Under the pieces are notes generated by a model. It did not search any database and was not told where the DNA came from. It saw nothing but the letters and a program-made list of their open reading frames with translations. Positions 24,121 through 27,650 of a stretch of DNA of 64,000 nt are shown here, piece after piece. The stretch comes from a phage, in NCBI GenBank assembly GCA_014437165.1, contig GCA_014437165.1_4090.3, one strand, 5' to 3'. A program made the translations under genes and the position numbers. How positions within the stretch are numbered: the first letter of the stretch is position 1; each line of letters opens with the position of its first letter.

Positions 24121-24149
24121 TTGACATCCTTTCTGGACTCATTTATAAT
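24121..24149 (+). promoter_or_regulatory. sigma70-like promoter in a divergent control region
   Basis: TTGACA 24121-24126, 17 nt, TATAAT 24144-24149; RBS AAGGAGA; minus-strand gene starts at 24071. Confidence 0.6.
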
Positions 24150-24172
24150 AGAAAAAATATAAGGAGAAATTC

Positions 24173-24418
24173 ATGAACAATGTAATAGATCACTACCAAG
24201 CACTTAGCCAAAGTACTAAGAACTATATGAGCTACATGAACGCAGAAGACTTCGCATTCTTCCTCTCAAAATTCTGTGCAATCAATACCCTCAAAAAAAG
24301 TACTACCCCAACAAGTGCACTTATGTTGAATTGCTTTATAGAGGACATCTTTGAGGGACTTCAAAACCCTGACGAAAGTAAACGATTCATTAACCTTTTA
24401 GTACTGGCATCTATATGA
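24173..24418 (+). CDS. small protein, ~60-aa paralog family C (divergent first member)
   Basis: First ORF after promoter; C-terminal LLVLASI resembles family tail. Confidence 0.5.
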   Translation: MNNVIDHYQALSQSTKNYMSYMNAEDFAFFLSKFCAINTLKKSTTPTSALMLNCFIEDIFEGLQNPDESKRFINLLVLASI

Positions 24419-24624
24419 CCCAAGAACAAATTATGCAGTACTACCTATGTGCTCTGTCAAAAGGTGAACAGAATAGCATAGAGCATCAACAAATTATACT
24501 TGCAAATGCAAAACGTTCGGCACTTCTGCTTAACTCAGTCAGAAATAACCTCATAAGGAATTTCCTTGAAGGTAACGAGTCTATGCAGTACTATTTCATC
24601 TTAACACTATTAATCGAGTACTAA
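24415..24624 (+). CDS. small protein, family C
   Basis: ATGA overlap with previous; tail YFILTLLIEY. Confidence 0.5.
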   Translation: MTQEQIMQYYLCALSKGEQNSIEHQQIILANAKRSALLLNSVRNNLIRNFLEGNESMQYYFILTLLIEY

Positions 24625-24625
24625 T

Positions 24626-24835
24626 ATGAACACTGAACATAAAGAATTCTACACCAAATACCTTAGCAACGAAGAACAATTGTTTCTAAGGAGTGTATCA
24701 CCTTTAAGTATAGATACACCACACGCCAGAGATTGCTTTAATAATTGTATACGTAGTACTCTAGAAGCAATCGAATGCAATAACAAAAATATTATGTACT
24801 CAGGTTTAATAGGACTAATCTACTTTTATGAATAA
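24626..24835 (+). CDS. small protein, family C
   Basis: MNTEHKEFYTKYL.. tail LIGLIYFYE. Confidence 0.5.
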   Translation: MNTEHKEFYTKYLSNEEQLFLRSVSPLSIDTPHARDCFNNCIRSTLEAIECNNKNIMYSGLIGLIYFYE

Positions 24836-25022
24836 TCATGAAGATTTCTATTGTAGTAAACTACACAAGCAAGAACAGCTATCATTCTCTTTAGCACGAC
24901 CTATGAGAAAGAATAATCTGTATTATAATTACGATTTCAGGATAGAGACACGTAATGCAATAGAACATACGTTCCCTGCAACTAAGTACCGCTCTATCCT
25001 GAACCTCATCTTTAAGTTCTAA
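24828..25022 (+). CDS. small protein, family C
   Basis: MNNHEDFYCSKL.. tail ILNLIFKF. Confidence 0.5.
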   Translation: MNNHEDFYCSKLHKQEQLSFSLARPMRKNNLYYNYDFRIETRNAIEHTFPATKYRSILNLIFKF

Positions 25023-25074
25023 AAGGTGCAACAGGAACCGAGTACTTTAATATAGTAAGGATAATTGCATTACA

Positions 25075-25260
25075 ATGAATCATATAAGCTACTACTACCA
25101 ACAACTATCCGACAGAGACAAGTACAGTCACAACTCCCATGTGTGGTACTACAAACGCGGCAGTATAAGAGACAAACAACATTACTTCTGTATTTCTATT
25201 AAAGAAGCACTGACAACTAAGTACACGTACCGAGCAGTACTTAAACTAATCTCTATGTAA
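25075..25260 (+). CDS. small protein, family C
   Basis: MNHISYYYQQL.. tail VLKLISM. Confidence 0.5.
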   Translation: MNHISYYYQQLSDRDKYSHNSHVWYYKRGSIRDKQHYFCISIKEALTTKYTYRAVLKLISM

Positions 25261-25268
25261 GGAAGAAA

Positions 25269-25451
25269 ATGAACATAGAATTCTATTTAACTAAACTACA
25301 ACACGCCGAAAGATTCAACTTCAATAAGTTCAATATTTTCTACAATTGCGGGAACAAAAAAGATAAACACACCTTCCTATATGTCGTCACAAGAGATGCA
25401 CAAAACGAAAAGTACACATACAGAGAAGTAATGAAACTAATCGCTATTTAA
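25269..25451 (+). CDS. small protein, family C
   Basis: MNIEFYLTKL.. tail VMKLIAI. Confidence 0.5.
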   Translation: MNIEFYLTKLQHAERFNFNKFNIFYNCGNKKDKHTFLYVVTRDAQNEKYTYREVMKLIAI

Positions 25452-25459
25452 GGAATACT

Positions 25460-25639
25460 ATGCAACAATTCTATATAGAACGTATAACCATAAAAGACCG
25501 TTTCATGTACGACACATTCGTTGATTACTACAACCTAGGAACAAAAAGTACTAAAAATATTAATCTCAATAGCTGCATTTATGCTGTACTAACACAAGAT
25601 AATCCCTACAGGGAAATCCTCGCCCTGGCATCTATATAA
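25460..25639 (+). CDS. small protein, family C (59 aa, below track cutoff)
   Basis: RBS AAGGAA, ATG 25460; MQQFYIERI.. tail ILALASI. Confidence 0.45.
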   Translation: MQQFYIERITIKDRFMYDTFVDYYNLGTKSTKNINLNSCIYAVLTQDNPYREILALASI

Positions 25640-25649
25640 AGGAAACCAA

Positions 25650-26321
25650 ATGAAACTTAATGCACACAGCAAACAATACCTTAAGCACTTTAAGTACCTC
25701 AATAGTATTCAGGCAGAATCAGTTACATCTGCATATACGTATCACCCGAATGTACTAAAGAAACGAAATAAAAAGGAAAAATCCAGTACAAATGGAGTTA
25801 ACGTATCAAAGAACCTTGAATTGTACATGAAGAAAAATAATATAGCTGTTCATTATATGAATATCTATAATACTGATTTAAAAGTATTGAGTACTAATAC
25901 GAGCACAAAGGTACTAAAGAACGCATCCTTCATCATCAATATGCAGTTGGATAATACCCCGTGCACTTTAATGCTATACTTCGGGAATACATACTTCTTC
26001 GGGAATTGTAACACCTCCCACGATGTCAATACAGCACAATTCCAAATGGGTGGCATATACTCTACTGATGCAGAAAAAGTACACGAGAATATGCACTTCT
26101 GGCAAGCACAACGTACAGAAGAAACTGATACAGTACTACAATTCCTCAAAGAACTAGAACACAAAGAACTACAGGAAGAAGAACTATTCATGTACAGTAC
26201 TGTAATCGATAATCCAGTACTCTATAAAAACGCGTACAATCTGACAAAACATGTACAGGAACTTATCAGTACTAATAAGAAAATGCATCACCTCATTACG
26301 TATATTACAAACTATGTATAA
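25650..26321 (+). CDS. hypothetical protein (223 aa) embedded in family C array
   Basis: RBS AAGGAAA; no motif recognised. Confidence 0.55.
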   Translation: MKLNAHSKQYLKHFKYLNSIQAESVTSAYTYHPNVLKKRNKKEKSSTNGVNVSKNLELYMKKNNIAVHYMNIYNTDLKVLSTNTSTKVLKNASFIINMQLDNTPCTLMLYFGNTYFFGNCNTSHDVNTAQFQMGGIYSTDAEKVHENMHFWQAQRTEETDTVLQFLKELEHKELQEEELFMYSTVIDNPVLYKNAYNLTKHVQELISTNKKMHHLITYITNYV

Positions 26322-26499
26322 AGAATACTACAGGGAACATCTCCCAATGTATCTCCAACACCTTGTACCAACAGAACCATTGGGTATAGAAAAAAACTAC
26401 GAAAAAGACTACTTCATTCAGTGCACTAAATCCTCGATATATATTGAAGACTATAATCGAGTACTGTATCACATCCTTTTACTAATATATAGGTACTAA
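26311..26499 (+). CDS. small protein, family C
   Basis: Internal ATG 26311 (MYKEYYREHL..); tail LLLIYRY. Confidence 0.5.
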   Translation, partial: TMYKEYYREHLPMYLQHLVPTEPLGIEKNYEKDYFIQCTKSSIYIEDYNRVLYHILLLIYRY

Positions 26500-26500
26500 T

Positions 26501-26683
26501 ATGCACAAAGAATACTACACACAATTTCTCCCCAGCATTTTTGAACACTACGCCAGATACAAAGTCCCCCTGGATAACGATTTGGCAGTACTGGGATTCA
26601 ATAACTGCATAGAACGAAGTATAGAAAATAGTAGTAGTTATGACCAGCTATATAACACTATCCTACTTATATTCAGGTACTAA
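26501..26683 (+). CDS. small protein, family C
   Basis: MHKEYYTQFL.. tail ILLIFRY. Confidence 0.55.
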   Translation: MHKEYYTQFLPSIFEHYARYKVPLDNDLAVLGFNNCIERSIENSSSYDQLYNTILLIFRY

Positions 26684-26684
26684 C

Positions 26685-26873
26685 ATGCATAAAGAATACT
26701 ACACAAAATATTTCCCAATGTACCTCAGAACTAATCTATTAGATAAACCTCGCGGTATCAATGCACAAAATGATAAAGTGTATTTTACTATGTGCACTAA
26801 AGCATGTATACTAGATTTTGACAGCTACCATCGAGTACTGTATCATACCCTGTACCTAGCTTTCGTATTCTAA
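26685..26873 (+). CDS. small protein, family C
   Basis: ATG 26685 (MHKEYYTKYF..); tail LYLAFVF. Confidence 0.55.
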   Translation: MHKEYYTKYFPMYLRTNLLDKPRGINAQNDKVYFTMCTKACILDFDSYHRVLYHTLYLAFVF

Positions 26874-26882
26874 GAGAACAAT

Positions 26883-27068
26883 ATGCATAAAGAATTCTAC
26901 TTAAGCCATCTGGATCTAAACTCCCAAATGCTTATACCACTAATCCCAATAGATATCAAGGATAAGAAAAATACCGAACAATTCATTTACCATACACAGT
27001 GTGCGATCACCCCAAATTACATTCCATATGAATTGTACTACATTCTCGCCCTAATATATAGGTACTAA
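26883..27068 (+). CDS. small protein, family C
   Basis: MHKEFYLSHL.. tail ILALIYRY. Confidence 0.55.
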   Translation: MHKEFYLSHLDLNSQMLIPLIPIDIKDKKNTEQFIYHTQCAITPNYIPYELYYILALIYRY

Positions 27069-27069
27069 T

Positions 27070-27255
27070 ATGCATAGAGAATACTACACACAATTTGTTA
27101 AAGGGAACTACAAACATGCCGTACCCAGAACCCCTTTAAATTCTCATGACCCAAGTACTATATTCTTGTTTAATGACGCAATACGTACAGTACTCAATAC
27201 TAAAGATGAAGATGTGCAGTACGTATTCTTACTATTACTTATATACAGACACTAA
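27070..27255 (+). CDS. small protein, family C
   Basis: MHREYYTQFV.. tail LLLLIYRH. Confidence 0.55.
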   Translation: MHREYYTQFVKGNYKHAVPRTPLNSHDPSTIFLFNDAIRTVLNTKDEDVQYVFLLLLIYRH

Positions 27256-27260
27256 CTAAT

Positions 27261-27443
27261 ATGAATAAAGAACATAAAGAATTCTATATAAGAAAACTAA
27301 CATTCGTCCCCGTAAGAATATATAAAGAATGCGACCCAAGATTATACCTATGGCACTTCAATGAGTGCATAAAAGATTCTATATACCCTAAGAACTATAA
27401 AGAACAATTGTGCTCAGTACTAACACTAGTACTATCATATTAA
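27261..27443 (+). CDS. small protein, family C
   Basis: MNKEHKEFYIRKL.. tail LTLVLSY. Confidence 0.55.
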   Translation: MNKEHKEFYIRKLTFVPVRIYKECDPRLYLWHFNECIKDSIYPKNYKEQLCSVLTLVLSY

Positions 27444-27458
27444 TTAATAGAGAATACT

Positions 27459-27650
27459 ATGTATAAAAACTTCTATATAAGTAAACTAAAAGAAAATGAA
27501 CAAGTATGGATTAGATCTATAATTCCACTGGCATTTAATAGATATGCATTTAACAGATGTACCGAGATTGCTATAGACCCTTATAATATTAAAGAGAATG
27601 TACAGTATAATCAGTACTACTATATCTTAATGCTTATATATAGGAAGTAA
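27459..27650 (+). CDS. small protein, family C
   Basis: MYKNFYISKL.. tail ILMLIYRK. Confidence 0.55.
   Translation: MYKNFYISKLKENEQVWIRSIIPLAFNRYAFNRCTEIAIDPYNIKENVQYNQYYYILMLIYRK

Follow-up and report, generated by a model that had tools for sequence, protein, structure and literature searches.

Small early phage inhibitors such as the anti-CRISPRs, T7 Gp2, T4 Dmd and AsiA are 50-90 amino acids (aa) long, are expressed early, have a narrow taxonomic range and lack detectable homologues. T4 Dmd is a single antitoxin mimic of 60 aa. The multigene families (MGF) of African swine fever virus (ASFV) consist of tandem paralogues with copy-number differences and chimeras. The genes of the host take-over module of phage SPO1 are, as far as is known, mostly unrelated to one another. 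Here we analyse an array of 14 small open reading frames (ORFs), numbered m01 to m14, which occupies positions 24173-27650 on the plus strand of a 64,000-nucleotide (nt) stretch of phage DNA (contig GCA_014437165.1_4090.3 of assembly GCA_014437165.1; the whole stretch is hereafter the window). Based on comparative analysis, we propose that the array is an early operon of paralogous helical mini-proteins that may bind host targets.

How does this locus compare with the closest described systems? The 26-gene SPO1 module (PMC6873191) and the presumed early region of phage CBB (PMC5259590) likewise contain short genes without an assigned function behind strong host-sigma promoters, and in both the genes are expected to be switched on first and to target host processes (PMC6873191, PMC5259590). 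The Asteriusvirus array differs from the SPO1 module in that a single promoter precedes 13-14 neighbouring genes, all paralogues with the same fold. The genomic accordions of poxvirus K3L (PMC6115191, PMC9973261) share with the array tandem paralogy, copy-number differences between close strains and recombination chimeras. However, accordion copies are recent and near-identical, whereas the array paralogues are 20-45% identical and each is conserved as an orthologue. The array thus lacks the near-identical tandem copies of an accordion but displays its copy-number variation and recombinant junctions (14-23 copies; an m08::m10 fusion). A tandem multigene family in a plastic early region of a large virus is in itself a known kind of thing. 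The array proteins resemble the small early inhibitors in size, inferred early expression, narrow range and absence of detectable homologues, but such inhibitors do not usually come as 14-23 tandem paralogues. Comparison with known anti-CRISPR and anti-defence inhibitors yielded no sequence or fold match, and no Aca-type helix-turn-helix regulator adjoins the array.

A family of small paralogous genes

By its sequence, the window is Asteriusvirus DNA from a jumbo coliphage of the 121Q/PBECO4 kind. A megablast search with positions 24100-27700 matched 36 phage records, all of them Asteriusvirus jumbo phages of Escherichia or Salmonella of about 310-390 kb, 121Q, PBECO4, phAPEC6, G17 and Sharanji among them. 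The best relative showed 98.2% nucleotide identity starting at 24582 (24582-27700 versus 121Q, 98%). In 121Q the same stretch is annotated as gp249-gp265, every one a ‘hypothetical protein’, and lies head-to-head with ‘RCC1-like DNA condensation’ genes. The interval 24173-27650 holds 15 plus-strand ORFs, 14 small (59-81 aa) and one of 223 aa (ORF223), which together cover about 97% of 3.5 kb at 34% G+C. An earlier note on this DNA had described the same set, including one ORF (25460-25639) below the ORF cut-off, and its coordinates are borne out: the missing ORF encodes 59 aa and the cut-off stood at 60 aa. Two starts were moved downstream of the mechanical ORF calls (m08 from 26251 to 26314, m10 from 26640 to 26685), in agreement with the 121Q annotation. 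The tight packing that had been noted is equally evident, with intergenic spacing of -8 to +15 nt and a sole exception, a 52-nt gap before 25075. We are highly confident of this anatomy.

The small genes fall into four sub-families. The D-type is represented by m01 (24173-24418, 81 aa) and the C-type by m02 (24415-24624, 69 aa), whose start overlaps the m01 stop by 4 nt. Two A-type genes follow, m03 (24626-24835, 69 aa) and the divergent m04 (24828-25022, 64 aa; 8-nt overlap with m03). After the 52-nt gap come the B-type genes m05 (25075-25260, 61 aa, with a TAAGGA Shine-Dalgarno site), m06 (25269-25451, 60 aa) and m07 (25460-25639, 59 aa), then ORF223 (25650-26321), unrelated to the small family. 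The remaining genes are again A-type: m08 (26314-26499, 61 aa; its start overlaps the ORF223 stop by 8 nt), m09 (26501-26683, 60 aa), m10 (26685-26873, 62 aa), m11 (26883-27068, 61 aa), m12 (27070-27255, 61 aa), m13 (27261-27443, 60 aa) and m14 (27459-27650, 63 aa), the last gene of the array.

Pairwise phmmer comparison separated two clear groups, m05-m07 and m03 plus m08-m14. A hidden Markov model (HMM) of the A group, run against the window's 246 ORFs (m03, E 2e-26), also took m04 and no ORF outside the family; m04 was recovered at E 3e-7 when it was left out of the model. Over positions 1-62, m03, m04, m08, m09 and m12 match PHROG 11711, a group without assigned function, at E 6.5e-9 to 7e-27 (2e-13, 1.5e-19, 7e-27, 2e-24 and 6.5e-9, respectively), and m10, m11, m13 and m14 score E 1e-19 to 1e-26 with an HMM equivalent to it. 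PHROG 11711 is the same family as 121Q gp251-252 and gp257-265. A PHROG scan of m01, m02, m05 and m06 found no match; the B-, C- and D-type members lie outside the reach of PHROG 11711 and are joined to it here through profile-profile comparison alone. Within the B-type, m06 was identified by phmmer, HMM and hhalign and m07 by these and by the shuffle test, its placement in the sub-family coming from the local HMM. Among the A-type genes, m11 was supported by phmmer, HMM and shuffle test, and m12, m13 and m14 by HMM and shuffle test.

Sub-family profiles were built from the window and the homologous arrays of five related phages. With hhalign, A and B aligned over their full length (probability 92.5%, P 5e-7), as did A and C (84-88%, P 3e-6 to 8e-6), and C aligned with the D-type of m01 colinearly over 60 columns (59%, P 9e-5). 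Reversed-profile controls never gave a P better than 0.005. Moreover, relatives carry intermediate sequences, such as a JP4 gene matching both A (1e-4) and B (4e-10). In addition, each protein was scored with an HMM restricted to array members below 40% identity with it, and 300 composition-preserving shuffles of its sequence served as background. By this measure m02-m14 scored 16-51 bits versus 6-14 bits for the best shuffle (z = 7-31; 12.7 for m02), while m01 was not significant (z 2.6). Since the similarity withstands composition-matched shuffling, it is not an artefact of AT-rich codons, a caveat raised together with the original description. On these profile and shuffle comparisons, 13 of the 14 small ORFs demonstrably form one homologous family, to which m01 probably belongs as a highly diverged member. 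The proposal of about 14 tandem paralogues hence stands for m02-m14, and for m01 the evidence (z 2.6, P 9e-5) is suggestive only. The literal motifs put forward for the two ends, M-[HN]-K-E-[YF]-Y and L-[LI]-x-[YF]-R-[YH], did not hold, as each fits 3 of the 14 proteins. A looser form does: in 13 of 14 proteins [YF]-Y occurs among the first 14 residues, and the proteins share a hydrophobic last helix.

The small ORFs are protein-coding genes under purifying selection, judging from their orthologues. The pooled ratio of non-synonymous to synonymous change (dN/dS) against orthologues in 121Q, JNE01, JP4, BF17 and BAU-ELP22 is 0.32-0.47. Partitioned over 82 orthologue pairs on a minimum spanning tree of nine loci, it is 0.19 for core columns and 0.31 for surface ones. 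Positive selection was considered and rejected: the few orthologue pairs with dN/dS above 1 rest on 1-2 synonymous changes each, and the pooled partitioned analysis indicates purifying selection. Of 34 phage records, 31 carry an m09 orthologue with 95-100% protein identity and 33 carry one with at least 90%. ORF length is maintained even though the sequences fall into about 40 clusters with less than 60% identity between them, and the ORFs are intact in all relatives. It is very improbable that the ORFs are untranslated and the repeats a DNA- or RNA-level feature: 15 consecutive same-strand ORFs fill 97% of 3.5 kb at 34% G+C, synonymous change exceeds non-synonymous change, the profile signal withstands shuffling and the fold is predicted with confidence. 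The family has thus come through the AT-rich low-complexity check on both counts, survival of shuffling and purifying selection on orthologues. An Rfam search returned only a chance-level miRNA match.

The predicted fold is small and helical. AlphaFold2 modelled m08 from a 54-sequence family alignment with a mean predicted local distance difference test score (pLDDT) of 91.2 and a predicted template modelling score (pTM) of 0.74. In the model, two short N-terminal helices (residues 3-7 and 12-15) lead into an extended loop (16-27), after which two helices (28-43 and 47-60) form a long antiparallel hairpin. The hydrophobic tail forms the last helix (pLDDT 88-92), which, from the secondary-structure summary, would pack against the other helices. 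Conserved columns are almost all hydrophobic (5, 6, 10, 17, 18, 23, 25, 34, 37, 41, 42, 51, 52, 54, 55 and 57-59); the core residues common to the paralogues include an invariant Tyr (Y6), L10, F34, C37 (72% Cys), I42 and L57 (96%). The loop and the polar helix faces are hypervariable among paralogues, and net charge ranges from -3 to +6 and isoelectric point (pI) from 5.1 to 9.6. Foldseek with the m08 model found no match in the PDB and only family members in BFVD, and Pfam, NCBIfam, PADLOC and PDB-sequence searches gave no credible match to the small proteins. Weak matches to MjAgo_N, EC042_2821, PDC-S19 and a designed repeat protein were rejected as far under thresholds. The family and fold are without characterized relatives, though the family is already catalogued as PHROG 11711 and as GenBank hypothetical proteins.

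Three other protein classes were considered and set aside. The central Cys/His position reported earlier proved to be a single Cys column without a metal-binding site, and a zinc-ribbon or other metal-binding mini-protein was rejected given one semi-conserved Cys column and no conserved His beyond position 2. A helix-turn-helix or other DNA-binding protein was rejected on the absence of a Pfam helix-turn-helix match, the helical-hairpin model and the pI range of 5.1-9.6. A membrane anchor was rejected because the hydrophobic tail measures about 10-12 residues versus the 18 or more needed to span the bilayer; the B-type tails (KLISM, KLIAI) are shorter still.

ORF223 stands apart from its neighbours. 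No profile link to the small family was found by HMM or hhalign, and the idea of a fused family domain at its C-terminus (…HKEL…LITYITNYV) was rejected for want of support from either method. It had been described as of no recognizable family, and its sole assignment is indeed to phrog_29152, a group without assigned function (E 1.5e-155), with no match in Pfam, NCBIfam or PADLOC. Its orthologues show dN/dS of 0.44-0.64, and its AlphaFold model is unusable (pLDDT 45). Homologues form 22 clusters and derive, where sources are shown, from large contigs (up to ~360 kb) with phage or E. coli assembly names; a related-locus search seeded with ORF223 recovered 121Q alone. In every relative examined it is a fixed landmark between an upstream half of C-, D- and B-type genes and a downstream half of A-type genes. 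ORF223 may be the sole non-paralogous effector or partner of the operon.

Proposed expression as a coupled early unit

The array is preceded by a sigma-70 promoter, TTGACA-N17-TATAAT, at 24121-24149 on the plus strand that matches the consensus at 12 of 12 positions. It sits in a 100-bp divergent intergenic region shared with the first minus-strand RCC1-like gene, and an AAGGAG Shine-Dalgarno site lies 7 nt ahead of the m01 ATG (24173). The array had been assigned a single promoter. This site is confirmed, yet a second promoter-like site, TTGACA-N17-TATCAT (11/12), is found on the plus strand at 26818-26846 inside m10 and may provide an added transcription start. At that internal site AGTACTG abuts the -10 hexamer, as at many early promoters in the window. 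There are no terminator-like sites within 24173-27650. One polycistronic early mRNA fits the anatomy, with its consensus promoter, lack of an internal terminator-like site and overlapping or abutting stops and starts.

The gene joints themselves carry a signal. The tail Arg of the ...Y-R-Y motif is encoded by AGG in 22 of 28 cases versus 31 of the 235 Arg codons elsewhere in the array genes (Fisher p 1e-12). In the resulting AGGTAC-TAA-n-ATG joint, AGGT forms a Shine-Dalgarno sequence 8-9 nt before the next start; in B-type genes TAAGGAA spans the stop codon. Because the AGG-encoded Arg supplies the Shine-Dalgarno site of the following gene, part of the conserved tail is a nucleotide-level signal for the downstream gene, and conservation seen in a protein tail can stem in part from a ribosome-binding site within the coding sequence. 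These embedded sites support expression as one coupled polycistronic unit.

The promoter context points in the same direction. The window contains 37 plus-strand sigma-70 promoters with at most one mismatch (3154-60476), 19 of them perfect, versus about 4 expected; examples lie at 28288-28315, 38209-38236, 41903-41930 and 45219-45246. Such an excess of consensus sigma-70 promoters is, at the level of sequence, a hallmark of a host-polymerase early region. No T4-type late promoters (TATAAATA) occur in the whole window, so that this class cannot be used for timing. About 20 of the 37 predicted promoters have AGTACTG directly against the -10 hexamer (offset +15/16 from the -35); the array's own promoter at 24121 is without this element, and the internal site at 26818-26846 has it. 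AGTACTG beside the -10 is a candidate phage-specific promoter element or operator.

Distribution, reshuffling and a model for function

Within the databases searched the small-protein family is restricted to the Asteriusvirus-like genus. A word-indexed search of 5.8 billion proteins returned 69 clusters, whose sources, where shown, are contigs of up to about 390 kb or named Asteriusvirus phages. When 1.84 billion representatives were scanned exhaustively with HMMER, 35 matched, 34 of them family members (41-69 aa); the lone other match (P0095), a repetitive sequence of 531 aa, was rejected as an artefact. All four homologues traced to contigs lie in the same syntenic array with a 219-224-aa ORF in the middle, and propeller genes stand upstream on the opposite strand wherever the contig extends far enough. 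The literature searched, including the Sharanji, fEgEco12, CBB and phAPEC6 genome papers, describes neither the family nor any Asteriusvirus paralogue array.

Copy number and gene order vary strongly. Grouping at 60% identity gave 40 clusters over six phages; with one letter per cluster and # for ORF223, the window (14 copies) reads A B C D E F G # H I J K L M N and 121Q (16 copies) reads O R C D E F G # k d H I J K L M N. JP4 has 21 copies, BAU-ELP22 has 23, BF17 has 22 with its C-type gene relocated to the downstream half, and JNE01 has 16, of which only clusters A and B are in common with the window; JNE01 is less than 60% identical to almost all window members. By DNA comparison the 5' end of the window's array is a recombination mosaic: over 24072-24640 the promoter region and m01-m02 are about 90% identical to JNE01/Turkey5 and about 78% to 121Q, and after about 24582 the window is 98% 121Q-like. 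At the protein level m01 is 83% identical to its JNE01 counterpart and about 27% to 121Q gp249. One homologue, P0006, is an m08::m10 chimera joined at a shared RVLYH stretch and followed directly by an m11 type in its contig, an arrangement that is the signature of unequal crossing-over. The homologues also include copies that are truncated, frameshifted or chimeric (P0041, P0047, P0053, P0067, P0068 and P0006). Given that paralogues within the array are 20-45% identical, they are old, reflecting long-term birth and death with reshuffling rather than recent amplification. The tandem expansion of a lineage-restricted tiny family, as originally proposed, is upheld by the profile links, the intermediates in relatives and the confinement of the array to Asteriusvirus-like phages.

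Based on these observations, we propose that the array is a single early operon of genus-restricted helical mini-proteins of about 60 residues that bind host targets and evolve by gene birth and death, an explanation to which, as a whole, we assign a probability of about one half. Upon entry of the DNA into the cell, host sigma-70 RNA polymerase would start at the consensus promoter, an early timing that we infer from promoter class and context. Ribosomes would then move from gene to gene by translational coupling, as successive genes overlap at their stops and starts or leave 1-15 nt between them, and the codons of the terminal ...R-Y (AGG TAC TAA n ATG) would serve as Shine-Dalgarno sequence for the next gene. 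The paralogues share a hydrophobic core and diverge almost fully in polar surface, loops and net charge. Each would most likely engage a different partner in the infected cell, and the set would act as a panel of host take-over or anti-defence inhibitors. The panel would evolve by gene birth and death, through unequal recombination, chimeras and translocation, and not by fast point substitution, each orthologue being retained under purifying selection once formed. The functional part, a panel of small intracellular binders or inhibitors of host or defence proteins, is tentative, with chances somewhat short of even; it builds on analogy and on the pattern of a conserved core and variable surface. 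It draws on the early-class promoter, the non-virion location, the diversified surface and charge on a conserved core, purifying selection on each orthologue and presence/absence variation. In the related phage CBB, clusters of RpoD-like promoters before short hypothetical ORFs have been read as an early host take-over region (PMC5259590), and the related PA5oct relies on host RNA polymerase and has uncharacterized early genes (PMC7318152). Virion mass spectrometry of phAPEC6 lists the RCC1-like neighbours gp549 and gp551 and no array member (PMC7247149); the array homologue P0001 is gp542c. Some points weigh against the proposal. Virion mass spectrometry can miss small proteins, the paralogues are old (20-45% identity) and not recent amplifications, and orthologues are under purifying, not positive, selection even at surface positions, so that no arms race by point mutation is visible.

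Other roles may be envisaged for the same proteins. They might serve the biology of the phage itself, as paralogue-specific chaperones, adaptors or regulators for the neighbouring array of beta-propeller (RCC1/Kelch-like) genes, or as subunits of a hetero-oligomeric intracellular structure. The two arrays, one of small proteins and one of RCC1/WD40/Kelch-type propeller paralogues, lie head-to-head in every locus examined, both are multi-copy and variable, and a small helical fold with a very hydrophobic last helix could drive oligomerization. However, their promoter classes differ, with a full -35/-10 consensus for the array and a hairpin followed by a -35-less TATAAT for several propeller genes, and two propeller proteins are virion-associated whereas no array member is. 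We regard such a role as unlikely. Another alternative concerns competition between phages, each paralogue acting in superinfection exclusion or as an antitoxin mimic against a different competitor or toxin. The orphan immunity-gene arrays of bacterial polymorphic toxin systems are tandem, highly diverged small proteins with strain presence/absence variation, and the array recalls them in these respects; early expression would also fit, as would the resemblance to single antitoxin mimics such as T4 Dmd. Yet there is no cognate toxin gene in or beside the array and no similarity to known immunity or antitoxin families, which leaves this alternative just as improbable as a role alongside the propellers. 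It overlaps the binder panel that we favour and differs from it solely in the target.

The copies might also be mostly superfluous, having arisen through recombination in a plastic part of the genome, and might do little or nothing, a notion in keeping with a copy number of 14-23, reshuffled gene order, the damaged and chimeric copies listed above and the low identity of JNE01 to almost all window members. Against this stand the dN/dS of 0.19-0.31, the preservation of ORF length and hydrophobic core over 40 diverged clusters, orthologues that are near-identical across 33 phage records and Shine-Dalgarno coupling signals that have been kept. We consider it a poor explanation, less likely still than either alternative role.

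Why should an array of putative host-directed binders matter? Jumbo phages carry hundreds of unassigned early genes, a source of new host take-over and anti-defence mechanisms. The array is a compact, delimited set among them, 14 natural variants of one confidently predicted 60-aa scaffold, to which sister phages add about 40 diverged variants; it would be easy to synthesize, express and screen against E. coli proteins and defence systems. Distinct targets for the variants would account for some of the variation in host range between Asteriusvirus therapy candidates and would define a minimal evolvable binding scaffold. We speculate further, as a rather unlikely extension, that the array is a repertoire of mini-binders on one 60-residue helical scaffold, with one defence or take-over target per paralogue, shuffled by recombination as a cassette that sets host range. 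If true, a repertoire of 14-23 genes would amount to an antibody-like strategy of ‘one scaffold, many specificities’, for which no phage precedent was found in the literature searched. Were the array dispensable, it would still document the growth of jumbo-phage early regions through the birth and death of tiny genes.

Neighbouring arrays and a non-coding stretch

The array is not the only tandem expansion in the window, as had been pointed out. Upstream, on the minus strand, 12455-24071 holds 10-12 tandem RCC1/WD40-like beta-propeller paralogues of about 270-440 aa. Ahead of several of these genes stand a terminator-like hairpin (GCCAGTACTnnGTACTGGC with a T-run) and a AAATATAGTATAAT element that lacks a -35; the combination of hairpin and -35-less TATAAT is found before the propeller starts at 17959, 19219 and 20439 and, more loosely, before 24071. 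On the plus strand, a larger tandem expansion lies at 49604-55516, where 26-27 paralogous genes for proteins of about 65-90 aa overlap or abut; a G-T-N-Y-Q motif is conserved among them. These proteins are not related to the 24173-27650 family (hhalign P at least 0.03), in line with the view that the expansions are independent cases.

Directly downstream of the array, about 2 kb (27651-29615) is without a credible ORF and is unannotated in 121Q. This stretch contains about 22 strand-matches of the palindromic YAGTACTGA, which has 70 matches in the whole window versus 1.4 expected and is densest at 27.8-48 kb. It also has promoters, a perfect sigma-70 one at 28288-28315 and two on the minus strand (28954-28926 and 29294-29267), and, at 28680-28815, dense short direct repeats of the GGCTAGATGG / GGCTGGATGG / CTAGACG type that are iteron-like. 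An Rfam search of 27651-29615 found no match. The stretch might serve as an origin, give rise to non-coding RNAs or represent a cluster of operators or iterons. Further downstream, between 34099 and 47300, many of the early promoters have, no more than about 10 nt beyond them, a G+C-rich hairpin of conserved sequence (GGGGAGAAATGATTCTCCCC and its variants), which is placed at the 5' end of the predicted transcript; examples lie downstream of 37202, 38236, 40621, 42126, 42394, 45246, 45740 and 47264.

Smaller duplications are present as well. A pair of 79-aa paralogues is encoded on the plus strand at 30071-30310 and 32471-32710 and, judged by position relative to the array, probably corresponds to the DUF7249 (PF23907) genes of the JNE01 locus. 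Further two-copy paralogue pairs occur at 1473/1821, 8513/8842, 36085/42453, 55750/56060 and 58222/59043.

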